A stretch of 64,000 bases of DNA from Torpedo marmorata. Lineage: Eukaryota. Under the pieces are notes generated by a model that saw only the letters and a program-made list of their open reading frames with translations, was not told where the DNA came from and did no database searches. The translations under genes and the position numbers were made by a program. This document shows positions 341 to 62,885 of the stretch, piece by piece; the first letter of the stretch is position 1; each line of letters starts with the position of its first letter. The stretch is taken from contig OZ360221.1 in assembly GCA_977017645.1 (NCBI GenBank), positions 7,812,001 through 7,876,000 on the forward strand, given 5' to 3'.

Positions 341-506
341 AAAATTCTTCTGGTGAGGGGTATAGTTCCAGAAATGGGAGACCACATCTCCAGCAATGAA
401 GTCTTCAGAACATGTCGGGATATGCTCACGATTTGGTTCGAATCGCAGCAGACTCAGACTTCATGCAGATGCTAGCTTCTCACCGTGAAACCTTCATCTC
501 TTTCAG

Positions 507-667
507 CTGTGGAACAGTGCATGCAGTTTCCGGAACGACGTTTACATTCAGTTGCGTTGGTATAACAGGACGATATGTGAATATCATCATCCCAGGCTGG
601 AGCAAAATCCTGACCCTGTGCGAGGTCGAGGTCTTTGGGTCGAAGTTCCCAGAGAAAGCACATGCAG
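507..667 (+). CDS. FTLD exon B1 (C-terminal half of a domain whose A exon lies upstream of the window)
   Basis: tttcag|C TGT GGA ACA...CAT GCA G|gtaaga; 161 nt; CGTVHAVSG...LTLCEVEVFGSKFPEKAHA. Confidence 0.9.
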
Positions 668-3600
668 GTAAGATGGTTCCTCAGTCGCTCTTTATACAGA
701 CATTCATCTCGTCAGTCAATAAGTATCTTGCTCGGTGTGTGATGGGCGGGGGGGGGGGACGTTCGGTTGATAGAGGTGAGTGTCGATCAGATGGTGGGTG
801 TCCCAGTCCAGAGATAGCGCCTTTGACGATAAAGTTATTTTTCCATTTTTATGGAAGAAAAAGAAAATAGATTAAGAACATTCATCTGGTCGTTTCAATC
901 AACATTACAATTGCCACGATCCATGCAAAATTGAGGTGGATTGCCTGCTTTCTCACGTCTCCACCCTCTGCCATTCCAGTTTACGCGCCTGTGCATGTCC
1001 CTAACCTTTGCAGAAAAACAATCACGTTGAAGATTAACGTAACATGCACCATTATTCAGTGACAGAGGGTATTATCCGAGCAGGTAGTTTCGACATCTCA
1101 TAAACAGCACTTAAGGCAAGACACAGAGAGAACGGCAGAGTTACAGAGAAGGTGGTTACGTGCAAAGGAAACGAAATATTACAATTTTGAGGTGCTTCAG
1201 AGGAATGATAGCGGCAGAAGACATTCTCCCCCTGAGTCGTCGGGAGCTTAATCTTCTTCTCGTGAATTTACAATCTGACGCGAGGGGCCTGACGTTTGGG
1301 CCCAGAAAGGTTAAACAGTTAATGTCTTGGCTGTTTACGGAAGCGGGAGTTAGACATGGAATCAACGAACGGTAGGGTGCTGTATGTGATGGCATGAGCC
1401 GCGTTCACAACCGTCGGCCATACCTAGATGTCTTGGCGGATGAGTGTCCGTACCACACAAAGCATGCACAATGAGAGGATGGTTTAAATCAATTCTCAAT
1501 CTTCCTTCGGGTTACGTCCCCCATGAGTCTATTCAAAATTCATTAGCCCCCTTCCCTGTGAAGCAGTCAAGTATAGTTTTCTTACATACTTCTCTCCTTC
1601 CGACTGCACAACAAACTATGTAAAATATTAACGTTACGATATGAAATGAGAACAAGCCTTTTATTTAAATGTGCCATTGGCTTTCCCAGTATGGTGGGCT
1701 TGGGTGGGGGGTGGGTGGGGAAGGGAGAATGCCCTCTGTTGTGTATGGCTGCTTTAAATCGTGCCCCTGTAAAAAAAGTTTGAAGGGAGATCACAAATTC
1801 CCTCAGGTTTCTAAGGAATTCCATCCGCTGATGGGCTTTACCGGACATGCATATGCGTATGTTGAGCAGGACAGGCAACAAGAGATGTTTATTCCTCGGG
1901 ACATTAATCTCCTAATTGACGAGAACCTCAATCATGAAAACATGCATAAAGGAGCTCCGAGGATTCCCAGCGCAAAGAACTGCACAGGTTTAAATTATAG
2001 GTCCAACCAGTCTTAACTTTATGTCTCTCAAATAAAATAAATTTCAGCCGACGTACAGCAGAATCCGAAATTTAAAGTTGGAAATAAACATTTCGCTCAT
2101 TACAGCGATGCTGTGCGCTATGTTACCAGCTTTGTCCATCCTTCTTCGTGGATTGTGTTCATTATACAGGGGGAAACGTGGCGTTTGGAGGAACGGCGAC
2201 GCAGTCCAGCACCTCTGGCCGTGCCGGCCCTGAAAGAGCCACTGACGGAAACACCGACAACTCCTTACCAAGCGGATCTTGCACGGAGACGAAGAAAACC
2301 AAGGACCCTTGGTGGAGAGTCGACTTACATCAAACCTTTGCCGTGTCAGTGGTGCGAATCAGCAACAGAGGAGACTGTTGTTCCGAACGGCTCAGAGGAG
2401 CCGAAATCCGCATCGGGAATTCGCTGAAGAACAACGGGAATGTAAACAGACTGTAAGTATTCATGTGCAAACACTTGTTTCATTCAGGCTGTACCTGAGA
2501 CATCTCTGACAGTGGTTCAGGAAGTCTCACCAAGGCTGATGCAGAGTCGCCATGCGTGTATAATGACGTATGTAACATCCCTGCTCTTTGCGTTGCTGTA
2601 CTCGATGCCAAACCTCGGCGTCGCTGCTAAACGGAGGACGAACACGGGGCTGGTGCATTGGACCATCCGTGTGAATAAATGATCCAGAACTATGGACCAC
2701 TTATACCGCGGTACAGAAAAACAATCCCAGGACGACAATAGCTAATCCAAGATGCTCTTTGTACCGGGTGAGCGGGTGCTGAGAAGTGAGGGGTAGTTTT
2801 ATTTTTTCAGACAGTGGTGAGACACTGAACACACTCTCCGCGGATGTTGCTGGAGACGTAAAAAATAAGCACAATTTAAAAAAAAAGTATTTGATGGGCT
2901 CATGGATATCAGAGAAATTGAGGGTTATAGACAATGAGGGAAATAAGCACGAGATCGATCATGGAGGCGGTAACAAAAGATTGGTACAACATCGTGCGTA
3001 GAATGCTCGTGTGTGCTACATTAATTCCACAGAGACAGATCTCGTAAAACTACAGAGTGTATGATGCCGGGTACTCACCGTGAGATTCCATCTCTTTCAG
3101 CTGTGGAACCATCCGATCTGCTTCGGCAAGGACGATTACTTTGAATTGCGGTGGATTCACAGGTCGTTATGTAAATATCATCGTCCCGGGTCCTGATAAA
3201 ATTCTTACCCTGTGCGAGGTTCAGGTCTTTGGTTCCAAACTCCCCTCACTGGAAGGTGCAGGTAGGTTCCAATTGCCTCGAAATCATTTGTTGGACACTA
3301 CGTTAGTTATTCAGTCAGTGGAACGTGGGCTGATAGAACCTCGCCAAGTAACAAATGATCACAATCATCGAAGGCGTGTTTAATGTTGTTCCCAGAGAAT
3401 GGTCATACATTCCCGTGCACAGCAAGATGACGTGATACAGAAATGGGAAGAAGCCACTCACCGTAAGATTGGGGTTATGGTTAGGGAGTCACAGTCATTC
3501 ATATCGAGATCCATAATCATTAGTCAAACGTCGCGACGCCTAAACCACAGACATTGCGCACAAACCTATACAGATCACTCGGACATAACGTCAGACAGGG

Positions 3601-6600
3601 CAGTGCACACAAAGCAAAACATGGCATTCTGTGGAGCATGCAGCAGGTAGGGGTCTGATTGAATTGACGATCTGAAATGAGAAATCAGGAAAGCGCATCT
3701 TCATGGATGTATCAAAACCGTCCCTCGCCCATTGTGCCGAATTAACTTTTCACGAGATCTCTTGACATTTAAAAAAATATTTTATTTTTAACTATAGATT
3801 GGTAACAGGCCCTTCCGGCCCACGAGCCCGTGCCGCCCAATTACACCCAATTGACCTACAATCCGCGGTACGTTTTTAAACGGTGGGAGGAAACAGGTGC
3901 CACCGGAGTAAACCCACACAGACACGGGGAGAACGTACAAACTCCGGACAGGCAGTGCCGGATTCGAACGACGGTCGCAGGCAGTGTAACCAGTTGCGTT
4001 AACCACTGCGCTAACCGTGACGCTCCAATCCGTGCAATACATGATGTGAACGGCTTTAGTTGCTCTTTAAAACTTGACCGGCTGCTTGAATGTTTAGCAT
4101 CAGATTTATTCCATGCACCTTTCTGAAAATGTGCCCCCCCCCTCAATAGAAAACGTGGTGCTTGGAGAGTTGAGAAACCCACCATGAGCCATCCTCAATG
4201 AGTTTTTAGGAGAAGTGGAAGAAGAATAAGAGCAAACGATGATGTGAATGATCTTGCTTGTTTATTTAAGTTTGATGAGAGTGCGGCTGCTTGGTCGTTG
4301 GTGTCAAATTGGATCCATGCAGTTTTCTGTTTTCCCACTCAACAGCAAACTTGGCTCTCGGAGCATCTGCGATGCAGTCGAGTACATTTCAGCGAGGTGC
4401 TGCTCAGCGAGCCATTGATGGCAAGAACAGCAGCATCTGGAGTCAAGGTTCCTGCACGCACACCAAGAGAAGCAAGGACCCCTGGTGGCGAGTCGATCTG
4501 AAGGGAATATACAACGTGTCAGTTGTAAGAATCACCAACAGAAGAGACTGCTGCTCCATACGGCTTCAAGGAGCCGAGGTACGAATTGGAAACTCCCTGA
4601 ACAATGCGGGAAATTCCAACAGACTGTAAGTACTCATGAACAAACGCCGGGTCTTATCAGCTATGGCATTGTGCTCTAAAAGTCCCATTGTTGCTGTTAC
4701 GTTTAGGATATTAGGATATAGCGCTAATAGGAAGGGTACTCTAATTTAGTTCGTATAAAAATGTAGAGGAACCTACAGAGTCCTCCATAATGTTTGGGAC
4801 AAATACATGTTTCCTTTATTTGCACCTGTCCTCCACAATTTTAAATTTGTAATGAAACAATTCACATAATTAAAGTTCACCTTCCAAATTTTATTCGAGG
4901 TTATTTGTATACATTTTAGTTTGAACAGTTAGAATTACAGAACTTTTTATGCATAGTCCCCTCATTTAAGGGCACAATAATGTTTGGGACATTTGGCTTC
5001 ACATGTGTTTGTGAGTATTCAGGTATGTTTAATTGCTTCATTGGTGCATGTATAAGTGAGCTATGCTTGCTTCTAAGCTTTTCATCAGCTTTGGAGTCTG
5101 TAGTTGCCAATTTGCAACATGAGGCCCAGGGCTGTGCAAATCGAAGTCAACAAAGCCTTTATGAGGCTGCAAAACAAGAATAAAAAAGTAAGAGACATCG
5201 CCCAAACCTTCGGGTTACCTGAACCAACAGTTTGGAACATTATTGAGAAGAAAGAGCGTACTGATGAGCTCAGTAATCGCAAAGGGATTGGTATTCCAAG
5301 GAAGACCTCCACTGCTGATGGCAGAAGAATTATCATCATAATGAATAAAATTCCCCAAACGTATGTCCAACAGATCATAAACGCGCTTCAGTAGGCAGGT
5401 GTGGACATGTCAATGACTACCGTCCACAGACGTCTTCATGAAAATAAATACAGAGGCCACACTGCAAGATACAACCACGGCAAACGTGGTATGCTTTGGA
5501 TCTTTGGCAGTTCCTTTCCGCCTCCACACTTTGCTCTTGGCATCACTCTGAAACATGTTATTCTTGGTCTCATCTGTCCACAAGACATGTTTCCGGAATT
5601 CTGCAGGCTCTTTTATATACTTCTAGGCAAACTGTAATCTAGCCATCCTTTCTGTGGCTAACTAATGGTTTGCATCTTGCAATGTTACGTCAGTATTTAT
5701 TTTCATGAAGTCGTCTGGAGACATTAGTCATTGACATATCCAGTCCTGCCTCCTGAAGAGTGTTTCTAATCTGTTGGACATAAGGTTGAGGATTTGTCTT
5801 CATTATGATGAGAAATCTTCTGTCATCAGCAGTGGAAGTCTTCCTTGGAATACCAGTTCCTTTACGATTACGGAGTTCACCAGTACGCTCTTTATTCTTA
5901 ATGACGTTCTAAACCTTTGGCGTTGGTAATCCTAAAGTTTGGGCGAAGTCTCTTACTGTTTTAATCTTGTTTGTCAGCCTCACAATGGCTTCTTTGACTT
6001 TCATTGGCACAACTCTGCTCCTCATGTTGAAAAATGGCAACTACAGATTCCAAAGGTGATCAAAAGCTTAGAAGCAAACCTTGCTCTCTTATACCTGCAC
6101 CAATGAAGCAATTGAGCATACCTGAGTAACACAAACACCTGTGAAGCCAAATTTCCCAAACATTATGGTGCCCTGAAATGATGCGTCTACGTATAAAAAG
6201 TGCTATAATTTCTACATGGTCAAACCAAAATATATACAAATAACTTTGAATAAAATCTCGAATGTGCACTTTAATTACATGTGAATTGTTTGATTACATG
6301 TTTAAAACTGCTGAGCACAGGGGCAAATAAAGGAAAAAAGTGCATTTGTCCCAAGCTGAAGAAAGGATTTAGGAAATCTCGAATGGGGCGTGAGAAGGCC
6401 TTGGCATATAGGATTACGGAGAACCCCAAGGCGTTCTATGCATATGTGAAGAACAGAAAGATTATGAGAATGAAGGTGGGACCGCTAAATGATAAAGAAG
6501 GAAACATGTGCCTGGAGGTGGAGGAGGTTGCGGAGGTCGTAAATGAATATTTTGCTTCAGTATTCAGACATTGATCACGGTGAGGTCGGAATAGAGCAGG

Positions 6601-9600
6601 TTTGTGTGCTGGAGAATGTTGAGATTAAGGAAGGGGAAGTGTTGGATCTTCTTAAAAACATTAAGATTGATACGTCCTCGGGGCCGGACGTGATATACCC
6701 CAGGTTTCTATGGGAAGTGAGTGAAGAGATAGCTGGGGCCGTAGCTATGACCTTTGAGTCCTCATCGGCAGCAGTGGAGTTGCCGGGGGATTGGAGAATG
6801 GCAAGTGTAGTCCCCTTGTTTAAAAAAGGTAATAAGGAAAATCCTGGGAATTACAGACCGGTGAATCGTATGTCAGTGGTGTGAAAACTATTGGAGAGGA
6901 TTCTTAAGGATAGGATATATGAGAATTTGGCGAAGTATAGTCCACTCAAGGATAGTCAGCATGGCTTTGCGAAGAGAAGGTCGTGCCTCACGATCCTAAA
7001 TGATTTTTTCGAAAATGTAACAAAATCAATTGATGATAGTAAGGCGGTATATGTGGTCTACATGGATTTTATTAAGGTATTTAACAAGTTCCCCCATGTG
7101 AGACTCGTTCAGAAAGTCTTGAGGCATGGGATCCATGGAACCTTGCCTGTGTGGATAGAAGGTTTGCTTGCAGGTAGAAAGCTGAGAGTTGTAGTGGAAG
7201 GAAAGTATTCTTCCTGGAGGTCAGTGACTACAGGAGTACCGCAAGGATCTGTTCTGGGACCCCTGGCGTTGGTGGATTTATAAATGACCTGGACGAAGAG
7301 GCGGAAGGATGGGTCAGTAATTTTGCGGAGGATATGTTTGTGGAGGAGTTGTGGATGGAGCTGAAGATTGTCGAAGATTGCAAAAGGATATAGACAGGAT
7401 GCAGAGTTGGGCGGAAAAGTGGCAGATGGAGTTCAATCCGGATATGTGTGAGGTGATGCATTTTTCAAGCGGAAACCATAAGGCGGAGTACAGGTTAATG
7501 ACCGGTTACTTCAGGGTGTGGATAAAGAGAGGGACCTTGGGGTCCAAATCCACACATCCCTCCAGGTCGCCGCACAGGTTGACTGGACAGTTAAGAAGGC
7601 CTATGGGATGCTTGGCTTCATTAATAGGGGGATTGAGTTCAATAGAGAGGTCATATAGAGATACTTAAAGTATTGTGTTCAGTTCTGGTCAACTCATTAT
7701 AGGAAGGATGTGGAAGCTATGGAGAGGGTGCAGAGGAGATTTACCAGGATGTTATCTGGATTAGAAAATAAGTTTTATGAGGCAAGGTTAGCAGAGCTGG
7801 GACTTTTCTCTTTGGAGTGTAGAAGGATGAGAGGAGACTTAATAGAGGTCTACAAAATCATGAGATCATAGATAGGAATGACAGCAAGCGCCCGTTTCCC
7901 AGGGCAGGAATAGCAAACACCAGAGGACATGTGTACAAAGTTAAGGGAGGGAAGTTTAGGGGAGACATCAGAGGTAAGTTTTTTACACAGAGAGTTGTGG
8001 GTGCCTGGAATGCCTTGCCAGGTGTGGTGGTGGAGGCTGGAACATTGGGGGCATTTGAGAGACTCCTAGACAGGCACATGGGTGAAATAAAAATAGAGGG
8101 TTACAGGGTTTGGAGGGTTTTTACTTTTTAAAGGAATATATGGGTCGGTATAACATCGAGGGCCGAAGGACCTGTACTGTGCTGTAGTGTTCTATGTTCT
8201 TTGTTCAAGCATTACGGTGGATACTGTATATCTGTGCAGTAGACCTCAAGGATGCATGCTTATCCCATTGCTTTACTCGCTCTACACCCATGATTGCGGG
8301 CTGGGCAGAATTGAAATGCCATCTAAAAATTTTCAGTTGACACCACAGACATCGGCAGAATCACAGATGGATATGAAGAAGCGTATGGGAGTGAGACAGA
8401 TCAGATAGTTGAGTAGTATCACAACAACAACCTTGCACTGAACGTCAGTAAAACAAAGGAACTGTTTGTGGAGGGGAACATCAGGAGAATACAAACCAGT
8501 CATTTTCTAGGGGTCAGCAGTGTAAAGTGTTATGAACGTCCCTTTTCTGGATGTCAACATCTCTGAGCATCTATCCTCGGTCCTTCATGTCAAAGCAATC
8601 ACGAAGAAGGCTCGCCAGCGGTGGTTCTTCGTGATGAATTTGAGGAGACTTGGTCTGTCAGCAAAGACTCTTGCAAATTTCTACAGGTGTACCGTATGGA
8701 GCATTTTGACTGGTTGCACCCATGTGTGGTATTGAGGTGCCAATGCAGAGGACAGGAAAATACTGCAGAGAGTTGTGAAACCGGCCAGCACCATCATGGG
8801 CACCAGTCGTCAATCCATCGAGGACATCTACAAGAGGCGGTATCTTAAGAAAGCAGCCTCTATCCTCACCACCCAGGCCATGCTGTCTTAACACTGCTAC
8901 CATCCGTAAGGAGGTACAGGAGCCTGAAGACAAACAACTAACGGTACAAAAACAGGTTCTTCCCCCCGGCATCGCATTTCTGAATGGGCAATGAATCACA
9001 GACACTACCTCACTTTATTGTATTTTGGACCAATTTATTTAATTTTTAAACGTAATTGATAGCAATATTTGTACCTGTAATGCTGCAGCAAAACAAACAT
9101 TTTCGTGACGTGTTCATGACAATAAATTCTGCTTCTAATTCCTTTGATGATCCATATAGTTTGAGAAATGGGAGACCAAATCTCCAGAAATGAAGTCTCC
9201 AGCACTTCGTAGGAAATGCTCACAATGTGGTTCGATGCACTCCAGACTCGGACGTCATGCAGATGCTAGCTTCTCACCGTGAAATCTTCATCTCTTTCAG
9301 CTGTGGAACAGTGCATGCAGTTTCCGGAACGACGTTTACATTCAGTTGCGTTGGTATAACGGGTCGATATGTGAATATCATCATCCCAGGCTGGAGCAAA
9401 ATCCTGACCCTGTGCGAGGTCGAGGTCTTTGGGTCGAAGTTCCCAGAGAAAGGACATGCAGGTAAGATGGGTCCTCAGGCGCTCTTTACACACATGTTCA
9501 TATCATTAGTCAGGAAGCATCTTGCTCGCTGTGTGGTGGTGGTATGTTCGCTTGATAGAGGTGAGTGTCGATCACATTGTGGGCTTTCCAGTCCAGAGAT

Positions 9601-11513: not shown

Positions 11514-11576
<63 letters not shown>

Positions 11577-53500: not shown

Positions 53501-56500
53501 ACGAGCCATTGATGGCAAGAACAGTAGCACCTGGTGGCAAGGGTCCTGCACGCACACCAAGAGAAGCAATGACCCTTGGTGGCGAGTCGATCTAAAGGGA
53601 ATATACAACGTGTCAGTTGTGCGAATTACAAACAGAAGAGACTGCTGCTCCAAACGGCTCCAAGGAGCCGAAATACGAATTGGAAACTCCGTGTACAACG
53701 AGGGGAATTCCAACAGTCTGTAAGTACTCATGAACAAATGCCGGGTCTTCTCAGTGTTGCTGTTACGTTGAAGACAAATATGAGTGGATGTCGTGCTCAC
53801 AGGATCGGGTACAGTAACTTAGTTCATGTCTGACTGTGGAGGAAAATATATCTTTGCAGTAAACAGCCAATGATGAGGGGAATAATTCCAGAACGGGAGA
53901 CCACATCTACAGTAATGAAGTCTGCAGCACTTGTCAGGAAATGCTCACGATGTGGTTCGATGTGCTGCAGATGCTGCTTTCTCACCGTTAAACCTTCATC
54001 TCTTTCAGCTGTGGAATCCTACATGCAGATTCCGGAACGAAGTTCATATTCAGTTGCGTTGGCTTCACGGGTCGATTTGTGAACATTATCATCCCAGGAC
54101 GGAGTAAAATCCTGACCCTGTGTGAGGTCGAGGTGTTCGGTTCTGAACTCCCGTCATTCGAACATGCAGGTAGGTGAAGTCCTTGTTGCGTTACTCGCTG
54201 CACAAACGCTCACAGCCTCAGTCTAATAATCGTTTTTGAGGACGTTTGGTTAGTCGATGTATATGGAGGTTACATGTTGTGGCCGACTGTGCACAGTGAT
54301 GATCAGTGGAGTGAAACGATAAGTTCACTCCCTTATCGACGTAAAACTACAGAGATGAAAACCAACATGAGTGGGCGACATTGAGTGAGATTTCCTGTAA
54401 GGCTTCTCTTCGCACACTGTAATTTTTTAAAAGTTAAATTTAGATATACAGATGTACATCACGATAACAGGCCATTTCAGCCCACGATTCCGTGCCGCCA
54501 AATTTACACCTCAGTAAACTACACCCCCGGTACGTTTTGAACGGTGGGCGGAAACCGGAGACCCTGGAGATAACACACGCAGACAGGGGGAGAACGGACA
54601 AACATCTTACAGACAGCGCGGGATTCGTTCCCCTGTCTGGGCCCGATCGCTGGCGCTGTAAAGGCGTTGCGCTGACCGCTACGCCAAATGTGCAGCCCAC
54701 AAACTATTTAACTTCATTCTGGACACCACCAGACTAAGCGCTTTTACAAGAGCATGGACAGCCGCCACTGTTCACCGACAAGACGAGACCGGTTTGGGCT
54801 CAGGACTCGCGGATCCCCATATCGAAGCACAAAGCTTCCATCTATTTCAGCTACTGGACTAGCTGCCAACATATTTCTGGAAAACACCAAGACCCGTAGA
54901 ATTCGATCTTTAAAGGCATGCGCCGTTGGAGTCTGTCGGACGTGTACTGTTGAATACCTAGTTTGGGTGTTGTGAATAGAGATCAAGTGGAGAGGCGAGT
55001 AAAACAGGGCATCATTCATCTTATATCGTCCATGTCCGCCAACTCTCCGAACGATCGGCAGGCCGGCAAATTACCCGAACACCTCTCATTCCCTGTTCGA
55101 TGTGCACCATCATAATATACCAGAGGAACTGCATCGCTTTTGGCAACAACGACCTTAGTCCCAGCGCTATTGCCATGCCCACGTCGTTGTCCAGATATTC
55201 ACTTTCATTCTAAATGGGTTACGTGGATTCCCACTGCAAGGAAATCACCCACCGAACGGGAAGTCAATCAGGAAAAGTGTGAAGTGATGCATGTTGCAGG
55301 GCCATACTTGAAGGAAGAGTATATGGTGGATATCAGGATTCTCAATTGTGCAGAGGAGCAGAGGTACCTTAGGTACAAATCCTCAGATCTTTAAAGGTTC
55401 CCGCGGGGGTGGGGTAAATAAAAAAACCTAATGGTATACTTCTCTTCATTAGTCGGGGGATTGCACCTCAATTGTCGTGAGTTGATTTTTCAGATCTATA
55501 AAATTGTGGCATGAGAACACCTGGACAATTGATTTCAGGTCTGGTTGCAAGAAGAATGTAGAAGCAACGGCGAACTTTCAGAAGCCATTTAACAGGATGT
55601 TGCCTTGTTTAGAGTACAAAATTAACAAAGCAATGGACTTTCTGTTTGGAGCCAATGAGGATGATGGTTGACAGTAGAGGTCTGCAGGTTTAAGGAAGGA
55701 ATAGATCGGGTGGACATACTCCACCTTACCACGGGGGCAAGAGTATTAAACATGAGGAAACATCACATCAAGGTGAAGGGAGGAACGTTTAGGGGATATG
55801 TTAGGCGTACGTGGTTTAAAAAGAGAGTAGTGGTGGCCGAGTGTGGTGTAGAAATACAATACAATATGGATATTTATAAGACTCTCCGAGAAGCACATGG
55901 ATATAAAGAATAGACAGTCATAGGTGTGACGTAGGTAAATTTAGTTTGTTCATGTTTATCTATTGGTCGGCGCTAAATCCTGGGCCTCAGGGCCTCTAAT
56001 GTTCCGTAGTATCCTATGTTCGGTGAATTTATAGATCGAGCAATTCTTTGTTTCCAGTTCTCATACGTGTCCAATCAATATATATTTTAAAGGAAGAAAC
56101 TGCAAGGTCTGAACTCTGGATGATGGGAAAGAACTTGTTTAATTATTTTTCCTTTTAATACTCCCTCTGGAACTTGCTTCATCGCTTCTCTCTCAGTCCG
56201 ATTTGATTTCACCTGTCAGGAAACAACGTGGCGTTGGGATCCAGCACCACGCAGTCCAGCACTTCTGGTCGAGCAGGGGCTGAGCGAGCCACCGACGGCA
56301 TCAAAGACAACTCCTGTACACAGACTAAGAAAACAAGTGACCCTTGGTGGAGAGTCGACTTAAATGAAACCTACGCTGTGTCGGCCGTACGAATCAGCAC
56401 CAGAAGAGACTGCTGCTCCGAATGGCTCCTGGGAGCCCAGATCCGCATCGGAAATTCGTTGCACAACAACGGGAATTCAAACAGACTGTAAGTGTTCAAC

Positions 56501-59500
56501 GCGAATACCGGCACTCTTTCGTCTGTATCTCGTGAAACGCTGTGCATCGTTTCGAGTGTTTCATTATTCCCGAAGCCCTGTCGTAACTGTGCAGAACTGC
56601 GGACTGCTGCATCTTTTATTCGAGCCCGTATATTAACCACTGTTAAAGAGAAGATATAGATAAATGATCCACATATGTTAACAACAGATTCGCAGCTACA
56701 GTGGACTAAAGGTGTATTTCACTAACCCATTGTTGTGTGTTTCACCACTTATTCAAACTCGTTAAACGGTGGAGGATTGGAGGTGTCAGTTGAAAGGAAG
56801 AGTAATTTTGCATAAAACGTCATCTCTGAAACAATCAGTTCTTCCTATTATAGGCATTACCACGTGATCAATGAGGACACATAAACAGGGCGTGCATACT
56901 CGCCCATAGTTGTGCAGTGCTTGAGAATATTCTTGCGTTTGCATCTTAACTTGGGGCAAAGGCGATTGAATTTAAAGCAATTGTATTATCTTAAAATGTT
57001 TGATTGTTACGTTCGATGGGCAGCAAATTATAGGCTGTGCTGCCATTGTTCACTCGTACCGTATTTCAGAAAATTGTGGAGCTGTAGATGCTTCCTAATC
57101 ACTGTGCGTTCCATGTCTTTCAGCTGTGGTACCGTCAAATCCGTGTCTGCATCGACACTTACTTTCAGTTGTGGTGGATTTACGGGTCGATATGTGAATA
57201 TCATCGTCCCGGGTCCTGGTAGAATCCTGACCCTGTGCGAGGTTCAGGTCTTTGGTTCCAAACTCCCCTCATTGGATGGAGAAGGTAGGTTTCGAATGTC
57301 CCCTGAGGTTCTTGTTGTTTACAGCCTCATCGTTTCAGTTCCATTAGATTCAGTTGATGCGATCTCGGCAGGCATCATTGATTCGATGCCAATAGAAACA
57401 CATTTCTATTGCATTCATTGATGTACAGAGATACAGGATCTAAGAGCAGGGATGTGATTATGAGGCTTTATATCGCACTGGTGAGACCTCGCTTGGATCA
57501 GAGGGGTACAGATTTGTGTTCCTTGTTTATGAAAGTGTGGGATGACATTGAAATGGTTCAGAGAAGCTTTACAGGGATGATTCCTGGAATGAAGAAATCA
57601 GTAGACGAGGAACATTATATTTGCTCTTGGACTATACTCATTGCAATTCAGAAGAATGAGGGGTTCCTCACAGAAGTACTTCGGGCGTTGTACGGCCTGA
57701 ACAGCGTCGATGTAGCTACGTTTTTTGCCATTTTAAGGGAGTCAAGGAAATGTGGGAAGAACCTTAGGCTGATGGGCGCCTATTTGAAACAGATATGCGG
57801 ACGAATTTATTCAACCAATGATTGTCGAACCTCAGGAATTTTCTGGCACGGTCGGCTGTGGAGGCCCGGTCGTTGGGTGCATGTAAGGCAAACCTTGATG
57901 TGTATCTGACTAGTTAGGGTGTCAAAGGTTATGGGGTGAAGGCACAGGATTGGGCTGAGTGGAAGAATAGATTAGCGAATGATGGAAGGCGGTGCGGAAT
58001 CGAGGGGCCGGTCGGCCTTATTCTGCTCCGATATCGTATGTTCCTACGATCATATTGTTAAAGAACTGATCTCGGGGTCACGAGCATTGGTAAACCCGAG
58101 ACATAGAAAGCAGCCGATGCTGGAATCTGACGCTAGACACAATCTGCTGGAAGAACTCTGCGGGTCACGAGGCTTGAGCTGATGAATCAGAATGGTCCAC
58201 GGTAGGTTCCGGAACCATTCTTCAAGACAGCGACGCGTTTTGATTAAATGTTGCCCCACAAAACTCGAACATTCTTTCCACCACTGATTCCTCTCCACGC
58301 GTTGAGTTCCTTCAGCAGATTCTGCTTCGCTTCGGTAAACCCTGCTTTAAATCCGCGGCACCAAAACAATTGACCCTATACACCTACACACAGCAGCTGT
58401 TTTTCGATGAACTCCATTAAGGGGCAGCTCCTTGCAGATGAAATGATTTAAGGAACTGAGAATGTGGAAGGCAGCGATAAGCCGGCCTCACCATCGTGAT
58501 GATCGCTGCAGGGAAATGAGAAGATCGCAGCCATAGTGAAAGAACAAAAATATTCCACCATCTCTGGCAATAGCGTCCATGCGGCCATATTTAGATTGAT
58601 TATGGTTTCCGGTTTTTATTATGTCGCACTCACGTGACCTGCTCGCCCGGATTCTGAACTGGTGTCTTTTGAATAGACACCTGCAGTCCAGAGTCTTCCT
58701 TATCAGAACCAAGCACGTTGCAAAGAGCGCGATCTTCACCATGCTCATTGTCCAGATAATTTCCTCGAAATTATACCGCCGCGATACATGACGAGAGAGT
58801 TCAGAATCACATCCAGCCATTCCAAATGAGTTATTACGTTGCGTGGAAGACTATTCAGCGCTAACGATGATGGGAATGATCTAGCTGGTTTATTTAAGTT
58901 TTTAGTGAGAGTGTGGCTGCTTGGTCGTTGGAGTCAAATTGGATCCATGCAGTTTTCTGTTTCCCCACTCAACAGCAAACGTGGCTATCGGAGCATCTGC
59001 GATGCAGTCGAGTACATTTCAGCGAGGTGCTGCTCAGAGAGCCATTGATGGCAAGAGCAGCAGCATCTGGAGGGAAGGTTCCTGCACGCACACCAAGAGA
59101 AGCAAGGACCCCTGGTGGCGAGTCGATCTGAAGGGAATATACAACGTGTCAGTTGTAAGGATCACCAACAGAAGAGACTGCTGCTCCAAACGGATCCAAG
59201 GAGCCGAAATACGAATTGGAAACTCCGTGTACAACGAGGGGAATTCCAACAGTCTGTAAGTACTCATGAACAAATTCCGGGTCTTTTCAGTGTTGAGGTT
59301 GTGTTCTGAAAGTTCCATCGTTTCTGTTACGTTGAAGACAAATATGAGTGGATATAGTGATACCAGGATCGGGTAAAGTAACTTACGTCGTGTCTGAGCG
59401 TGGAGAAAAATATATCTTTGCAGTAGACTGCTAATGATGAGGGGAATAATTCCAGAAAGGGAGACCACATCTACAGTAATGAAGTCTACAGCACTTGTCA

Positions 59501-62500
59501 GGAAATGCTCACGATGTGGTTCGATGTGCTGCAGATGCTGCTTTCTCACCGTTAAAGCTTTATCTCTTTCAGCTGTGGTATCGTACATGCAGATTCCGGA
59601 ACGAAGTTCATATTTAGTTGCGTTGGCTTCACGGGTCGATTTGTGAACATTATCATCCCCGGCCGGAGTAAAATCCTGACCCTGTGCGAGGTCGAGGTGT
59701 TCGGTTATGAACTCCCGACTTTCGAACATGCAGGTAGGTGAAGTCCTTTCTGCGTTACTCGCTGCACAAACGCTCACGTCCTCAGTCTAATAATCGTTTT
59801 TGAGGACGTTTGGTTAGTCGATGTATATGGAGGTTACATGTTGTGGCCGACTGTGCACAGTGATGATCAGTGGTGTGAAACGATTAGTGCACTCCCTTAT
59901 CGACGTAAAACAACAGAGATGAAAACCAACATGAGTGGGCGACATTGAGTGAGATTTCCCGTAAGGCTTCTCTTCGCACACTGTATTTTTTAAAAATTTA
60001 AATTTAGATATACAGACATACATCACAGTAACAGGCCATTTCAGCCCACGATTCCGTGCCGCCAAATTTACACCGCAGTAACCTACACCCCCGGTACGTT
60101 TTGAATGGTGGGAGGAAACCGGAGCACCTGGAGAAAACCCACGCAGACAGGTGGAGAACGTACAAACTTCTTACAGTCAGCGCGGGATTCGGTCTCCTGT
60201 CTGGGCCCGATCGCTGGCGCTGTAAAGACGTTGCGCTGACCGCTACGCCAACTGTGCAGCCCACAAACCCTTTAACGTCCTCCTGGACACCACCAGACTA
60301 AGCGCTTTGACAAGAGCATGGACAGCCGCCACTGTTCACTGACAAGACGAGACCGGTTTGGCTCAGGACTCGGGGATCCCCATATAGAAGCACAAAGCTT
60401 CCATCTATTTCAGCTACTGGACTAGCTGCCAACATATTTCTGGAAAACACCACGACCCGTAGAATTCGATCTTTAAAGGCATGCGCCGTTGGAGTCTGTA
60501 GGACTGTATTGTTGAATACCTTGGGTGGGTGATGTGAATAGAGATCAAGTGGAGAGGAGAGTAAAAGAGGGCATCATTCATCTTATATCGTCCATGTCCG
60601 CCAATTCTCCGAACGATCGGCAGGCCGGCAAATTACCCGAACACCTCTCATTCCCTGTTGTTCGATGTGCACCATCATAATATACAAGAGGCACTGCATC
60701 GCTTTTGGCAACAACGACCTTAGTCCCAGCGCTATTGTCATGCCCACGTCTTTGTCCAGATATTCACCTTTATTCTAAATGAGTTACAAAGGAAAATCAC
60801 CCACCGAACGGGAAGTCAATCAGGAAAAGTGTGAAGTGATGCATGTTGCAGGGCCATACTTGAAGGAAGAGTATATGGTGGATATCAGGATTCTCAATTG
60901 TGCAGAGGAGCAGAGGTACCTTAGGTACAAATCCTCAGATCTTTAAAGGTTCCCGCGGGGGTGGGGTAAATAAAAAAGCCTAATGGTATACTTCTCTTCA
61001 TTGGTCGGGGGATTGCACCTCAATTGTCGTGAGTTGATTGTTCAGATCTATAAAACTGTGGCATGACCACACCTGGACAATTGATTTCAGGTCTGGTTGC
61101 AAGAAGAATGTAGAAGCAACGGCGAACTTTCAGAAGCCATTTACCAGGATGTTGCCTTGTTTAGAGTACAAGATGAACAAAGCAATGGACTTTCTGTTTG
61201 GAGCCAATGAGGATGATGGTTGACAGTAGAGGTCTGCAGGTTTAAGGAAGGAATAGATCGGGTGGACATACTCCACCTTACCACGGGGGCAAGAGTATTA
61301 AACATGAGGAAACATCACTTCAAGGTGAAGGAGGAAAGTTTAGGGGATATGTTAGGCGTAAGTGTTTTAAAAAGAGAGTAGTGCGGGCCGAGTGTGGTGT
61401 AGAAATACAATACAATATGGATATTTATAAGACTCTCCGAGAGGCATCTGGATATAAAGAATAGACAGTTATGGGTGTAACGTAGGTAAAGTTTAGTTTG
61501 TTGATGTTTGTCTATTGGTCGGCGCTAAATCCTGGGCCTCAGGGCCTCTAATGTTCCGTAGTATCCTATGTTCGGTGAATTTATAGATCGAGCAATTCTT
61601 TGTTTCCAGTTCTCATACGTGTCCAATCAATATGTATTTTAAAGGAAGAAACTGCAAGGTCTGAACTCTGGGTGATGGGAAATAACTTGTTCAATTATTT
61701 TTCATTTTAATACTCCCTCTGGAACTTGCTTCATCGCTTCTCTCTCAGTCCGATTTGATTTCACCTGACAGGAAACAACGTGGCGTTGGGATCCAGCACC
61801 ACGCAGTCCAGCACTTCTGGTCGAGCAGGGGCTGAGCGAGCCACCGACGGCATCAAAGACAACTCCTGTACACAGACTAAGAAAACAAGTGACCCTTGGT
61901 GGAGAGTCGACTTAAATGAAACCTACGCTGTGTCAGCCGTACGAATCAGCACCAGAAGAGACTGCTGCACCGAATGGCTCCTGGGAGCCCAGATCCGCAT
62001 CGGAAATTCGTTGCACAACAACGGGAATTCAAACAGACTGTAAGTGTTCAACGCGAATACCGGCACTCTTTCCTCTTTATCTCGTGAAGCACTGTGCATG
62101 GTTTGGTGTGTTTGGTTATTCCCGAAGCCCTGTCGTAACTGTGCAGAACTGCGGACTGCTGCGTCTTTTATTTTACCCCCCAACACCAATCGAGACACGA
62201 TGAAATTAGAGTCCGTATATTAACCACTGTTAAACAGAAGATATAGATAAATGATCCACATATGTTAACCACAGATTCGCAGCTACAGTGGACTAAAGGT
62301 GTATGTCACTAACCCATTGATGTGTGTTTCACCACTTATTCAAACTCGTTAAACGGTGGAGGATTGGAGGTGTCAGTTGAAAGGAAGAGTAATTTTGCAT
62401 GAAACGTCATCTCTGTAACAATCAGTTCTTCTTATTATAGGCATTACCAAGTGATCAATGCGGACACATAAACAGGGCGTGCATACTCGCCCATAGTTGT

Positions 62501-62885
62501 GCAGTGCTTGAGAATATTCTTGCGTTTGCATCTTAACTTGGGGCAAAGGCGATTGAATTTAAAGCAATTGTATTATCTTACAATGTTTGATTATAACATG
62601 CTGATTGTGACGTTCGATGGGCCGCAAATTACAGGCTGTGCTGTGATTGTTCACTCGCACCATATTTCAGAAAATTGTGGAGCTCGAGATGCTTCCTAAT
62701 CCCTGTGCGTTCCATGTCTTTCAGCTGTGGTACCGTCAAATCCGTTTCTTCATCGACACTTACTTTCAGTTGTGGTGGATTTACGGGTCGATATGTGAAT
62801 ATCATCGTCCCGGGTCCTAGTAGAATCCTGACCCTATGCGAGGTTCAGGTCTTTGGTTCCAAACTCCCCTCATTGGATGGAGAAG
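507..62885 (+). CDS. Predicted multi-exon gene (partial at both ends) for a very large tandem F-type lectin: 17 complete FTLDs plus a half domain in 35 exons
   Basis: Exons alternate A/B with AG acceptors and GT donors. Phases are compatible at every junction (A ends CT, B starts with 1 nt = Leu; B ends with 1 nt, A starts with 2 nt). No internal stops. FTLD hallmarks in each repeat: NVALG, A(I/T)DG, C-x-(H/Q/E)-T, PWWRVDL, RxDCC, GAEIRIG, GR(Y/F)VNI, LTLCEV(E/Q)V. Confidence 0.8.
2170..2452 (+). CDS. FTLD exon A1 (X type, 283 nt; His replaced by Glu)
   Basis: atacag|GG GGA AAC GTG...AAC AGA CT|gtaagt; CTET...RGDCCSERL. Confidence 0.9.
3101..3261 (+). CDS. FTLD exon B2
   Basis: tttcag|CTGTGGAACC...GGTGCAG|gtaggt; 161 nt; ends LPSLEGA. 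Confidence 0.9.
3790..4025 (-). mobile_element. tRNA-derived SINE (HE1/V-SINE-like)
   Basis: Reverse complement has a tRNA-like head and the V-domain-like core ggagtttgtacgttctccccgtgtctg; about 11 copies in the window. Confidence 0.75.
4346..4625 (+). CDS. FTLD exon A2 (Y type, 280 nt; canonical fucose motif)
   Basis: caacag|CA AAC TTG...AGA CT|gtaagt; CTHT...RRDCCSIRL. Confidence 0.9.
4776..8226. mobile_element. Non-autonomous Tc1/mariner element with long inverted arms; right TIR interrupted by a CR1
   Basis: TA|CAGAGTCCTCCATAATGTTTGGGAC at left. Right TIR is split (ending ...ttgtcccaag near 6355, resuming caagcattacggtggatactg|TA at 8206-8228). Tc1 N-terminal HTH-like peptide at 5104-5480 (RDIAQTFG..TVWNII..PRKTSTADGRRI..TTVHRRL). 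Confidence 0.8.
6355..8205 (+). mobile_element. CR1-clade LINE, 5'-truncated, degenerate ORF2 (RT)
   Basis: Fragments PLFKKG..NPGNYRPV, QHGF..RSCLT, GVPQGSVLGP, FFTQRVV..WN; 3' tail gttctatgttct. Confidence 0.9.
8245..9130 (+). mobile_element. Rex1/Babar-like LINE RT fragment
   Basis: Peptides PLLYSLYTHDC, KKARQRWFF..LRR, FYRCTVWSILTGC, typical of Rex1/Babar ORF2; frameshifted. Confidence 0.7.
9301..9461 (+). CDS. FTLD exon B3
   Basis: tttcag|CTGTGGAACA...CATGCAG|gtaaga; near-identical to B1. Confidence 0.9.
10925..11207 (+). CDS. FTLD exon A3 (X type, 283 nt; His to Glu, DG to DD)
   Basis: atacag|GG GGA AAC...CGA CT|gtaagt; ATDDN, CTET, RGDCCSERL. Confidence 0.9.
11514..11576. repeat. (TA)n microsatellite at the 3' end of a SINE
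   Basis: Imperfect TA dinucleotide run. Confidence 0.95.
11585..11830 (-). mobile_element. HE1/V-SINE-like SINE
   Basis: Same family core as 3790-4025. Confidence 0.75.
12149..12309 (+). CDS. FTLD exon B4
   Basis: tttcag|CTGTGGAACC...GGTGCAG|gtaggt; 161 nt (absent from the ORF track). Confidence 0.9.
12810..13500 (+). mobile_element. CR1 LINE 3' fragment
   Basis: MLAFISRGIEFKSREV..LVRLHLEYCVQLW..QRRFTR. Confidence 0.85.
13688..13740 (+). pseudogene. Short intronic duplicate of part of exon A4
   Basis: gcattggcctcccagtcgagtactaatcaccaggcaggagcccagcgagc closely matches ~13889-13938 inside exon A4. Confidence 0.75.
13872..14151 (+). CDS. FTLD exon A4 (divergent Y-position exon, 280 nt; motif lost)
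   Basis: taacag|AA AAC GTG...AGG CT|gtatgt; CSQT...RRDCCSEWL. Confidence 0.85.
14230..16450 (-). mobile_element. CR1-clade LINE, 5'-truncated, ORF2 fragments
   Basis: Minus-strand ORFs with KSPGPD, RSCLTNL, FSKAFDKVPH, GVPQGSVLGP, YADDTK; short-repeat tail (ataaccat)n; possible TSD CATTA (14225-14229 / 16451-16455). Confidence 0.92.
16735..16970 (-). mobile_element. HE1/V-SINE-like SINE
   Basis: Same SINE core. Confidence 0.75.
17050..21278. mobile_element. hAT(Charlie)-like MITE built from two ~130-bp palindromes (17050-17181, 21148-21278), split by an L1 insertion
   Basis: Termini CAGTGGTTTTCAAAC...GTTTGAAAACCACTG. The second unit is preceded by GTCTAGAG, a Charlie-type target. No outer 8-bp TSD seen. 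Confidence 0.7.
17247..21084 (-). mobile_element. L1-clade LINE, 5'-truncated, near-intact ORF2 (APE endonuclease + RT + Cys-rich region)
   Basis: ORFs 18820-21105 (GGDFN, TRIDLF, SDHSP, YRPISLLN, DAEKAFD, RQGCPLSP, LFADD) and 17535-18842 (CFRC..H..WLC) are separated by one frameshift at an A run. Poly(A)-like tail; TSD AAGGAAATGAACCTTT at 17231-17246 and 21085-21100. Confidence 0.95.
21420..22195 (+). mobile_element. CR1 LINE 3' fragment
   Basis: MLAFTSRGI..KSRDVMLRLYKALVSPHLEYC..FTRMIPGMKG. Confidence 0.85.
22311..22471 (+). CDS. FTLD exon B5
   Basis: ttttag|CTGCGGAACT...CATGCAG|gtaagg; 161 nt. Confidence 0.9.
23727..24009 (+). CDS. FTLD exon A5 (X type, 283 nt; His to Gln)
   Basis: atacag|GG GCA AAC...CGA CT|gtaagt; CTQT...RRDCCSERL. 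Confidence 0.9.
24670..24830 (+). CDS. FTLD exon B6
   Basis: tttcag|TTGTGGAACC...GGTGCAG|gtaggt; 161 nt (absent from the ORF track). Confidence 0.9.
25654..25933 (+). CDS. FTLD exon A6 (Y type; canonical motif)
   Basis: caacag|AA AAC GTG...AGG CT|gtaagt; CTHT...RRDCCSKRL. Confidence 0.9.
26188..27015 (-). mobile_element. CR1 LINE fragment with a short 5' fold-back
   Basis: Minus ORF 26571-26957 (RDLGVQI..LVRPHLEYCVQFWSP..RFTRMLPG); 28-bp perfect inverted repeat at 26951-27015. Confidence 0.88.
27076..27236 (+). CDS. FTLD exon B7
   Basis: tttcag|CTGTGGAACG...CATACAG|gtgggt; 161 nt. Confidence 0.85.
27283..27500 (+). mobile_element. HE1/V-SINE-like SINE
   Basis: ttagcgcaacgc..ggttcgaatccgg (box B-like)..ggagtttgtaagttctccccg. 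Confidence 0.75.
28355..28570 (-). mobile_element. Degenerate HE1/V-SINE-like SINE
   Basis: Weaker match to the SINE core on the minus strand. Confidence 0.55.
28680..28980 (+). mobile_element. HE1/V-SINE-like SINE with a 51-bp tandem duplication at its 5' end
   Basis: 28680-28730 is repeated at 28731-28780, followed by the full SINE body. Confidence 0.8.
29154..29421 (+). CDS. FTLD exon A7 (short X type, 268 nt; His to Gln, Arg to Trp)
   Basis: tgacag|GA AAC AAC GTG...AGA CT|gtaagt; DNSCTQT...RSDCCSEWL. Confidence 0.9.
30112..30272 (+). CDS. FTLD exon B8
   Basis: tttcag|ATGTGGCATC...GGAGCAG|gtaggt; 161 nt. Confidence 0.9.
30400..31080 (+). mobile_element. Old CR1 3' fragment, copied along with the lectin unit (paralogs ~34755-35425, 43340-44000, 51900-52520, 57410-58050, 63010-63655)
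   Basis: SRDVIMRLYIALVRP / FTRMIPG-like remnants at the same intron position in six units. Confidence 0.75.
31147..31478. mobile_element. Solo LTR-like insertion (332 bp, TGT...ACA, 4-bp TSD CTGG)
   Basis: ctgg|TGTAGCAGC...GGTCGCAACA|ctgg; paralogous introns show the empty site gatgctggaatct. Confidence 0.75.
32296..32575 (+). CDS. FTLD exon A8 (Y type; canonical motif)
   Basis: caacag|GA AAC GTG...AGT CT|gtaagt; CTHT...RRDCCSKRL. Confidence 0.9.
32908..33068 (+). CDS. FTLD exon B9
   Basis: ttacag|CTGTGGAATA...CATGCAA|gtaagt; 161 nt. Confidence 0.88.
33135..33350 (+). mobile_element. HE1/V-SINE-like SINE (probable recombinant of two SINEs)
   Basis: 5' flank resembles that of SINE 27283; 3' flank resembles that of SINE 28680-28980. 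Confidence 0.7.
33524..33791 (+). CDS. FTLD exon A9 (short X type)
   Basis: tgacag|TT AAC AAC GTG...CGG CT|gtaagt; CTQT...RTDCCSDWL. Confidence 0.9.
34484..34644 (+). CDS. FTLD exon B10
   Basis: tttcag|CTGTGGTACC...GGAGCAG|gtaggt. Confidence 0.9.
35480..35725. mobile_element. ~250-bp inverted-repeat element resembling two opposed Penelope termini (paralogs ~31130-31710, 44055-44300, 52570-52815, 58105-58350, 63710-63950)
   Basis: Left arm (aatctgctggaggaactcagcg in the 63.7-kb copy) is complementary to right arm cgttgagttcctccagcagatt; resembles the Penelope end ctgctgagttctccagc at ~41980. Confidence 0.55.
36299..36578 (+). CDS. FTLD exon A10 (Y type; canonical motif)
   Basis: caacag|CA AAC GTG...AGT CT|gtaagt; CTHT...RRDCCSKRL. 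Confidence 0.9.
36901..37061 (+). CDS. FTLD exon B11
   Basis: tttcag|CTGTGGAACC...CATGAAG|gtaggt. Confidence 0.9.
37965..38180 (-). mobile_element. Degenerate HE1/V-SINE-like SINE (paralog ~46555-46770)
   Basis: SINE core on the minus strand. Confidence 0.6.
38190..39591 (+). mobile_element. CR1 LINE RT fragment
   Basis: RSCLTNLVEFFEEVT, YMDFSKAFDKVPH, GVPQGSVLG, ADDTK, FTQRVV..WN. Confidence 0.92.
39592..42007 (+). mobile_element. Penelope-like retroelement (RT + GIY-YIG remnant), degenerate
   Basis: SVLSRGLTFV, DRPIVS, DVQSL..SIPH, FLQVNGVVMGT, RYIDD, RFAQHL, RKLKEHHFIIRLGTFQPDGIHIDF; terminal segment cccgaaacgtcgg..ctgctgagttctccagc. Confidence 0.85.
42113..42380 (+). CDS. FTLD exon A11 (short X type)
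   Basis: ttccag|GA AAG AAC GTG...AGA CT|gtaagt; CTQT...RTDCCSEWL. Confidence 0.9.
43066..43226 (+). CDS. FTLD exon B12 (probable chimeric exon)
   Basis: tttcag|CTGTGGTACC...GGAGCAG|gtaggt. Confidence 0.9.
44887..45166 (+). CDS. FTLD exon A12 (Y type; canonical motif, RVDL changed to RVHL)
   Basis: caacag|CA AAC GTG...AGT CT|gtaagt; CTHT...RRDCCSKRL. Confidence 0.9.
45489..45649 (+). CDS. FTLD exon B13
   Basis: tttcag|CTGTGGAACC...CATGAAG|gtaggt. Confidence 0.9.
46780..48132 (+). mobile_element. CR1 LINE RT fragment (duplicate of 38190-39591)
   Basis: Same motifs, with an additional small internal deletion near 47600. Confidence 0.9.
48133..50552 (+). mobile_element. Penelope-like retroelement (duplicate of 39592-42007)
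   Basis: ORF 48871-49635 with DVQSLYPSIPH, LNNFSF, GVVMGT, RYNDD, TDIYYKP; GIY-YIG C-terminal remnant at 49926-50249. Confidence 0.85.
50658..50925 (+). CDS. FTLD exon A13 (short X type)
   Basis: ttccag|GA AAG AAC...AGA CT|gtaagt; CTQT...RTDCCSEWL. Confidence 0.9.
51612..51772 (+). CDS. FTLD exon B14
   Basis: tttcag|CTGTGGTACC...GGAGAAG|gtaggt. Confidence 0.9.
53440..53719 (+). CDS. FTLD exon A14 (Y type; canonical motif)
   Basis: caacag|AA AAC GTG...AGT CT|gtaagt; CTHT...RRDCCSKRL. Confidence 0.9.
54009..54169 (+). CDS. FTLD exon B15
   Basis: tttcag|CTGTGGAATC...CATGCAG|gtaggt; 161 nt, open (absent from the ORF track). Confidence 0.9.
54440..54690 (-). mobile_element. HE1/V-SINE-like SINE (paralog ~60003-60255)
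   Basis: SINE core on the minus strand. Confidence 0.75.
55265..56020 (+). mobile_element. Old CR1 3' fragment (paralog ~60815-61570)
   Basis: EKCEVMH, FTRMLPCLE, KVKGG.FRG remnants. Confidence 0.7.
56220..56487 (+). CDS. FTLD exon A15 (short X type)
   Basis: tgtcag|GA AAC AAC...AGA CT|gtaagt; ATDGI, CTQT...RRDCCSEWL. Confidence 0.9.
57124..57284 (+). CDS. FTLD exon B16
   Basis: tttcag|CTGTGGTACC...GGAGAAG|gtaggt. Confidence 0.9.
58976..59255 (+). CDS. FTLD exon A16 (Y type; canonical motif)
   Basis: caacag|CA AAC GTG...AGT CT|gtaagt; CTHT...RRDCCSKRI. Confidence 0.9.
59573..59733 (+). CDS. FTLD exon B17
   Basis: tttcag|CTGTGGTATC...CATGCAG|gtaggt; 161 nt, open (absent from the ORF track). 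Confidence 0.9.
61772..62039 (+). CDS. FTLD exon A17 (short X type)
   Basis: tgacag|GA AAC AAC...AGA CT|gtaagt; CTQT...RRDCCTEWL. Confidence 0.9.
62725..62885 (+). CDS. FTLD exon B18
   Basis: tttcag|CTGTGGTACC...GGAGAAG|gtaggt. Confidence 0.9.

Follow-up and report, generated by a model that had tools for sequence, protein, structure and literature searches.

A candidate F-type lectin gene of 50 tandem domains, with canonical and non-canonical binding sites in alternation, in the ray Torpedo marmorata

The DNA examined here, which we call the window, is a stretch of 64,000 nucleotides (C5:7,812,001-7,876,000, where C5 denotes the contig of the window) in the 6.2 Gb genome of Torpedo marmorata, and it lies within a long tandem array whose units are F-type lectin domains (FTLDs), each encoded by two exons, A and B. 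A motif scan and exon build placed 35 exons in the window, all 35 preceded by AG and followed by GT. The B exons measure 161 nt in 18 of 18 cases and the A exons 268, 280 or 283 nt; joined together they produce 7,595 nt, or 2,531 codons, with no stop, and each of the 17 whole domains has six cysteines and a length of 143-148 aa. An earlier reading made from the letters of the window alone (the sequence-only reading) had proposed a GT-AG spliced frame of 35 exons with a constant 161-nt B exon and these same domain properties, and our map reproduces it exactly.

All features of the array lie on the plus strand, and the window covers D20 (exon B) to D37 of 50 domains numbered from the start of the array. 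It opens with the end of the D20 A-B intron (1..506) and the 161-nt exon B of D20 (507..667), a domain with the site His-Arg-Arg, the three residues of the fucose triad discussed below. There follow D21 (2170..3261; A 2170-2452, B 3101-3261; Glu-Arg-Arg), D22 (4346..9461; A 4346-4625, B 9301-9461; His-Arg-Arg) and D23 (10925..12309; A 10925-11207, B 12149-12309; Glu-Arg-Arg), and then D24 (13872..22471; A 13872-14151, B 22311-22471), an older, unhomogenised even-type copy with the site Gln-Arg-Trp that stands between two expanded blocks, and D25 (23727..24830; A 23727-24009, B 24670-24830; Gln-Arg-Arg). From here the even domains carry His-Arg-Arg, namely D26 (25654..27236; A 25654-25933, B 27076-27236), D28 (32296..33068; A 32296-32575, B 32908-33068), D30 (36299..37061; A 36299-36578, B 36901-37061), D32 (44887..45649; A 44887-45166, B 45489-45649), D34 (53440..54169; A 53440-53719, B 54009-54169) and D36 (58976..59733; A 58976-59255, B 59573-59733). 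The odd domains carry Gln-Arg-Trp: D27 (29154..30272; A 29154-29421, B 30112-30272), which has 143 aa and a shortened loop before its first cysteine, D29 (33524..34644; A 33524-33791, B 34484-34644), D31 (42113..43226; A 42113-42380, B 43066-43226), D33 (50658..51772; A 50658-50925, B 51612-51772), D35 (56220..57284; A 56220-56487, B 57124-57284) and D37 (61772..62885; A 61772-62039, B 62725-62885). The start of the D37-D38 intron (62886..64000) closes the window. The shortest inter-domain intron is that between D28 and D29 (33069..33523, 455 bp), whose middle part of about 205 bp (approximately 33140-33345) has 50-74 overlapping matches in 1.26 Mb compared with 2-12 for its flanks; this high-copy repeat is on our reading a SINE, in agreement with the earlier description of an intron that is about half SINE.

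Profile searches for FTLD exons across about 1.23-1.26 Mb around the window, which has no N runs in 1.26 Mb, located 50 A exons and as many B exons, the two kinds strictly alternating along the plus strand between C5:7,679,818 and 7,983,118 (303 kb), all with AG/GT boundaries. D1-D19 and exon A of D20 (39 exons, C5:7679818-7811013) lie to the left of the window and D38-D50 (26 exons, C5:7876576-7983117) to the right, such that the array does run past both ends, as the sequence-only reading had supposed. A leader exon of 70 nt (C5:7674401-7674470, plus strand) is found about 137.6 kb upstream of the window and 5.3 kb before D1; it encodes a predicted signal peptide of 22 codons, the residues are hydrophobic, and its phase-1 donor is of the right phase. 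D50 closes with the sole stop of the joined frame; AATAAA follows about 250 nt beyond it, and a donor-like GT is kept immediately 3' of the stop. Extending the window, which had been suggested as a check, has thus yielded one signal-peptide exon in front of the array and one stop at its end. The resulting gene model has 101 coding exons over 309 kb and 22,017 nt of coding sequence, with a predicted product of 7,338 aa and about 790 kDa; the proposal of a single giant lectin of more than 2,500 aa is supported as to one gene, but was too low as to size. Only FTLDs were seen in the frame, which ends with D50, by an exon search that covered FTLD-like exons; the predicted linkers are about 10 residues long and the 7,338-aa chain contains no membrane-length hydrophobic stretch. 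Rfam gave no matches and TRF one 51-bp repeat. In ungapped comparison the array leader is identical at 10/22 positions to that of a sawshark model with 11 FTLDs and at 8/22 to that of a neighbouring 8-domain gene, judged against shuffles that retain composition, not general signal-peptide shape.

Other FTL genes and gene pieces surround the array. Upstream, 54 kb before the array leader, there is a single-domain gene (C5:~7,603,100-7,620,350) with His-Arg-Arg and a candidate leader, and its exon B contains a stop. Downstream, a second multi-domain gene with its own leader and eight diverged domains extends from C5:8,307,654 to ~8,407,400; this leader is identical to that of a Narcine (electric ray) protein at 15/22 positions in an ungapped comparison, and with BLASTP the 22-aa leader and the Narcine protein gave no alignment. 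A 5-domain run occurs twice in opposite orientation, at C5:8,155,445-8,224,351 (minus) and 8,782,435-8,842,849 (plus), each ending in a stop and with no leader found within 60 kb of either; the pair is probably part of a large inverted duplication. There is a further run of five FTLDs (C5:8,437,295-8,520,646) and two single copies (8,057,331-8,062,654 and 8,634,317-8,640,014), for which no leader was found and some of whose B exons are short or have no good donor. Lastly, nine inverted and leaderless copies of D38-D46 type occupy four runs on the minus strand (C5:8,588,570-8,729,506), 0.6-0.75 Mb away. Two of these orphan copies have stops, one has lost its A donor and two their B donors, so that four of nine domains are disabled; Asp-to-Tyr changes are also seen in the binding motif. 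From the state of these exons we take the orphan copies to be decaying spin-offs of the array.

The assignment of the array to the F-type lectin family is based on three A exons, all of which passed the Pfam cut-offs for F5_F8_type_C (PF22633, PF00754); a single B exon scanned alone had no Pfam match. An A exon also matches FBP32 (PDB 3cqo) with an E-value of 2e-52, as well as eel agglutinin (PDB 1k12), the closest relatives with a solved structure, and together these results exclude chance similarity. At least six cysteines are present in 50 of 50 domains, and every one has the motif DCC, a vicinal cysteine pair at the site. By sequence and profile, then, these are F-type lectin domains. The array has a leader exon and two exons per domain, the plan of the FBP32 gene with its five coding exons, two per domain (PMC12221842; this and other papers are cited for the sections covered). 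It departs from the binary plan of exactly two domains per chain in having 50 in one frame, and for the exons scanned Pfam gave only F5/8-type families and no SRCR, which places the array outside the DMBT1/SRCR family. A fold model of a skate homologue has well-folded domains (pLDDT 86), one of which fits 1k12 at 1.5 Å over 142 residues (Z 24.6). The mutual orientation of the domains is not confident (pTM 0.45), and the departure of the model from the two-domain pose of FBP32 (rmsd 9.9 Å over 287 residues) is weak evidence; such a model is compatible with beads on a string, without showing it.

We defined the fucose motif as His...Arg-x-Asp-x4-Arg/Lys, which corresponds to His52, Arg79 and Arg86 of the eel agglutinin AAA, the residues that hold the 4-OH of fucose (PMC5712786). 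The spacing used was 26 residues, chosen from AAA numbering and alignment; it is printed as 24 in a 2025 review (PMC12221842). The His-Arg-Arg triad is present in 21 of 50 domains, seven of them among the 17 whole domains of the window. The other 29 sites are non-canonical, comprising Gln-Arg-Trp (12), Glu-Arg-Arg (9), Gln-Arg-Arg (5) and three others, and the two kinds alternate along the array, a feature unremarked by the sequence-only reading. FTLDs that deviate from the fucose motif are known among family members, and such deviations are taken as changed or lost binding (PMC12221842). The idea that avidity simply follows from repetition therefore needs amending, because 29 of 50 domains are without the triad and alternate with canonical ones. 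The calcium motif retains its DG core in 48/50 domains, most of which read AIDGK or ATDGN, and takes the strict form h2DGx (h small hydrophobic; x = N, D or S) in 8/50.

Several observations suggest that the array domains, canonical and non-canonical alike, are under purifying selection. Nei-Gojobori dN/dS is 0.31, 0.25, 0.22 and 0.39 in four repeat classes (pairs within them are not independent), and 0.28 among ten diverged flanking domains; a ratio near 1 had been named beforehand as evidence against a functional array, and the range of 0.22-0.39 is far from it. When 39 copies are compared with the commonest codon in each column there are 140 synonymous and 137 non-synonymous differences, against 328 of the latter expected if neutral, and no stops against 17.6 expected if neutral (from the 140 synonymous variants), though homogenisation among repeats can also remove stops. 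Indels number 0 in exons and 35 in sampled 150-nt intron ends. No array domain is disabled by a stop or lost GT (0/50), compared with 4/9 orphan copies (Fisher p 0.0003, or 0.005 against D26-D46 only), and these p-values are optimistic since the orphan copies are in part mutual duplicates.

The manner of expansion can be read from the pattern of likeness. Adjacent domains are mostly about 60-65% identical, while next-but-one domains within the expanded blocks are 87-100% identical, and in a tree D4 and D24 group with the 20 even His domains, whereas D3, D5, D47 and D48 fall with the odd domains on the other side of the split. The existence of two lineages, together with the likeness between each domain and the next but one, indicates two bursts (D6-D23 and D26-D46) in which a unit of two domains was multiplied, and unequal crossing-over of this unit would account for the growth of the array. 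Given two diverged neighbours, unequal crossing-over could by itself produce the alternation, but purifying selection acts on the non-canonical domains as well.

Against this background we can ask what is known of comparable proteins. Reviews give two or four FTLDs in most teleost proteins and up to five in Xenopus, zebrafish and oyster (PMC5712786, PMC12221842), and a review of tandem-repeat lectins has FBP32 as its F-type example (PMC11186620); marsupial FTLDs are mentioned, without a chain of 18 FTLDs of the wallaby type in the sections covered. The literature searched, a body that most subscription journals fall outside, yielded no description of an FTL in which the tandem domains exceed five. 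The range of about one to five domains cited by the sequence-only reading thus agrees with the reviews, but database models, all unnamed, reach 18-38. Among 358 proteins, counting near-full domains and including isoforms, 88 have at least 6 FTLDs, 28 at least 10 and 13 at least 17. The longest are from Scomber japonicus (chub mackerel, XP_053183584.1, 38 FTLDs), Ascaphus truei (tailed frog, XP_075444567.1 and XP_075444568.1, 32 and 29), Scomber scombrus (Atlantic mackerel, XP_062278424.1, 20), Sander lucioperca (pikeperch, 18-19, with 19 in XP_035862489.1), a flatworm (19) and Notamacropus eugenii (tammar wallaby, XP_072509775.1, 18, with a signal-peptide-like start and no canonical triad); Xenopus tropicalis LOC100491211 has 12-13 and Pristiophorus japonicus (sawshark) 10-11. 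Like the array, the long RefSeq models consist almost wholly of tandem FTLDs, several have a signal peptide, and those of mackerel mix canonical and non-canonical domains; unlike it, all have fewer than 50 FTLDs and all are predictions. The predicted 50-domain chain is the longest among the 358 proteins compared, a statement limited to them because homologue searches were restricted by length (162-2000, 2936-5000 and 2407-7662 aa) and clustering hides long members behind short representatives. In a quick protein tree that included 20 of the 50 array domains, sawshark repeats form their own clade apart from the array, and so at least these two expansions are independent.

The nearest domains, with 58-71% identity and a similar linker, belong mostly to models from skates (Rhinoraja LOC144607515 and Amblyraja LOC116984017/049/036 and LOC116983989), which differ from the array in having 3-9 domains each and sites that are mostly Arg-Arg-Gln. 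Three of the skate models, analysed over their full length, have no signal peptide and start or end within a domain, and with leaders missing and domains broken they are probably pieces of a longer related or orthologous array split by annotation; their sites imply that the batoid array has not conserved the binding of fucose. Among characterised lectins, FBP32 (MsFTL1, striped bass, 3cqo) has the same domain, a triad that aligns gap-free to its first domain, two exons per domain and two unlike domains side by side. It has two domains rather than 50, forms a trimer, and retains His and fucose binding at both sites, whereas every second array domain lacks this His. Eel agglutinin (1k12) and the Xenopus pentraxin fusion share an F-type fold as well as the His52/Arg79/Arg86 triad (PMC5712786), but have one and five FTLDs respectively, and the array contains only FTLDs as far as seen, and no pentraxin. 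Oyster sperm bindin also has tandem FTLDs, some without the triad, in isoforms produced by splicing (PMC5712786); its 1-5 domains are under positive selection, those of the array under purifying selection. DMBT1, or salivary agglutinin, resembles the array only in how it works, since it is secreted and strings together recognition domains, the number of which influences binding, and differs in its unrelated SRCR fold, glycosylated spacers and other domains. It has 7-21 SRCR domains, binding rises with their number, and bacterial binding changes by 30-40% between 8 and 13 tandem domains (PMC9038570).

Our contention is that the Torpedo locus represents a giant variant, real and apparently not yet described, within the F-type lectin family, and the explanation we prefer, and think probable, is a single gene, expressed mainly as a full-length multivalent lectin, in which a leader and 50 two-exon modules specify a predicted secreted chain of 7,338 aa. 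The whole chain would be transcribed and spliced, and would be secreted given its signal peptide and lack of a hydrophobic anchor. The His-Arg-Arg domains would bind L-fucose as those of eel agglutinin and FBP32 do, while the intervening Glu/Gln-Arg-Arg and Gln-Arg-Trp domains would have lost or changed their specificity and might act as spacers or present a second face for binding. Some 21 canonical sites spaced in this way could cross-link fucose-bearing surfaces, achieving within one polypeptide the multivalency, and hence the avidity, that short FTLs gain as trimers and hexamers (PMC12221842). A barrier setting, with skin or gut mucus in which microbes are trapped or mucins tied, is the most likely one, although we regard it as evenly balanced; an FTP-domain (F-type lectin) fragment has been reported from catshark skin mucus and fucosylated glycans from dogfish (PMC10707392).

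In preferring a single full-length product we need to explain why the array should not be divided into many small genes with one or two domains, as short FTL genes are the rule in the literature, a single-domain gene with its own stop lies 54 kb upstream, and some array introns are 20-25 kb. We consider this very improbable. A strict scan for leader exons on both strands of 1.264 Mb found two matches, each before an FTLD run (5.3 kb before D1 and before the separate 8-domain gene), and none inside the array. A first loose scan had many matches in simple repeats and introns, and a looser leader scan gave 15 matches at four places within the array, which we rejected as internal leaders, since no such match forms a proper exon that reappears from one repeat unit to the next. 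Since the strict scan also found no leader for the two 5-domain genes and one 5-domain run of the cluster, and the looser scan did match inside the array, leader absence is moderate evidence. As to the splice donors, the 49 internal B exons all end at GT, with a purine at +3 in 48 and G at +5 in 47, and identity drops to 33-53% from +8, a pattern repeated in the 15 most diverged representatives, such that the sequence comparison shows inter-domain donors to be under selection. Gene ends in the cluster take the form of a stop in exon B (the upstream single-domain gene, the two 5-domain genes and D50); B read-through tails in the array range from 1 to more than 100 codons. AATAAA/ATTAAA is absent from the first 800 nt of 32/49 inter-domain introns, and neither occurs in the 455-bp intron, half of which is repeat. 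The slightest chance of all attaches to the copy number being an assembly artefact, or the array a young functionless duplication. The coding sequences of D11, D13 and D15 are indeed identical and units from D7 to D20 are 97-99.3% identical, but among the most alike 5.6-kb units 21/21 pairs differ, by 37-169 substitutions (0.7-3.0%) and 4-14 indels, divergence grows with distance in four of four repeat classes, all 91 A-exon matches in the genome sit on one contig, and dN/dS is well under 1. Copy differences and the trend with distance fit real tandem copies, the exact count being provisional.

Accepting one gene, the form of its product must still be considered, as an mRNA of about 22 kb composed of near-identical symmetric modules could be spliced shorter. 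On this view the array would be a library of cassettes in which the single leader is joined to varying selections from the 50 phase-1 modules, yielding many shorter lectins, and the full chain is rare. The A-B modules are all phase-symmetric, which allows any number of them to be left out without loss of frame; database models of relatives have isoforms differing by whole domains (9/8, 19/18, 11/10); exon B of D1 could reach a stop a few codons on by read-through; and oyster bindin provides a precedent, with splice forms of 1-5 FTLDs (PMC5712786). However, these database isoforms drop one domain and not most, copies within a class that are 87-100% identical in most next-but-one pairs and under purifying selection offer little diversity to choose from, and in long reads of DMBT1 four of five transcripts contained all genomic repeats (PMC9038570). 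We therefore think such a library unlikely. A further step down in probability is a long protein that is mainly a structural or charge-based scaffold, whether of mucus, egg coat or jelly, and in which recognition of fucose takes second place. This would suit the predicted pI of 9.45, a net charge that is zero or positive in 50/50 domains, the 55 N-glycosylation sequons and the 29/50 non-canonical sites, as well as the absence of the triad throughout long models of wallaby (18/18), pikeperch (19/19) and skate (9/9). It is harder to reconcile with a triad that is invariant in 20/20 even-type copies of the two expanded blocks, where 16 and 42 other columns vary, or with frog and sawshark chains that keep the triad in nearly all domains.

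If the array does encode a full-length lectin, a single chain could form a bridge from microbes or glycans of one type to glycans of a different type. The tandem giant architecture is not unique, since other vertebrate models carry 18-38 FTLDs, uncharacterised and without a paper that we could find, which partly answers the question of novelty that the sequence-only reading had raised; that reading had the outline right, but it put the number of domains too low, gave an incomplete account of the binding sites and claimed too much uniqueness. What appears new in the architecture, from the predicted chain, is its length, the greatest seen, and the way canonical domains alternate strictly with non-canonical ones. 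Both its components and the way it expanded are of familiar kinds, and so the extension is striking but the chemistry is not new. In reviews from 2017 and 2025 vertebrate FTLs have one to five domains, at most a tenth of the number predicted here, with multivalency achieved through oligomers, and the 50-domain chain and the unnamed models of 18-38 domains would mean that long-read genomes hide very large lectins missed by surveys and fragmented annotation. With more doubt than confidence, we suggest an unrecognised vertebrate class of giant secreted chains of 18-50 FTLDs, expanded independently in rays, sharks, teleosts, frogs and marsupials, of which the ray protein would be the longest and a cross-linker of two specificities. 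The array offers a direct test of domain number against avidity, as DMBT1 does in people, and of the role of non-canonical FTLDs, here kept in strict alternation with canonical ones.

The introns of the window contain mobile element remains. One degenerate piece of an A exon (~13650-13720), about 170 nt before the D24 acceptor, is the only extra exon-like match in the array. In the D22 intron there is a broken transposase-like frame (5100-5500), presumably Tc1-like, of which 5128-5391 has no Pfam match. Intronic transposable elements had been described as decayed, and most are indeed broken, but the D24 intron contains a non-LTR (LINE) ORF2 with endonuclease and RVT_1 (17538-21129, minus strand) that is open over 769 and 449 codons in two frames, within a stretch of 27-37% GC; this retrotransposon is a fairly young insertion. 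Two introns of 5 kb each (37062-42112 and 45650-50657) have nested repeat fragments in common, which were copied along with the two-domain unit and include an RVT_1 piece at 38158-38823 with its counterpart near 46922.
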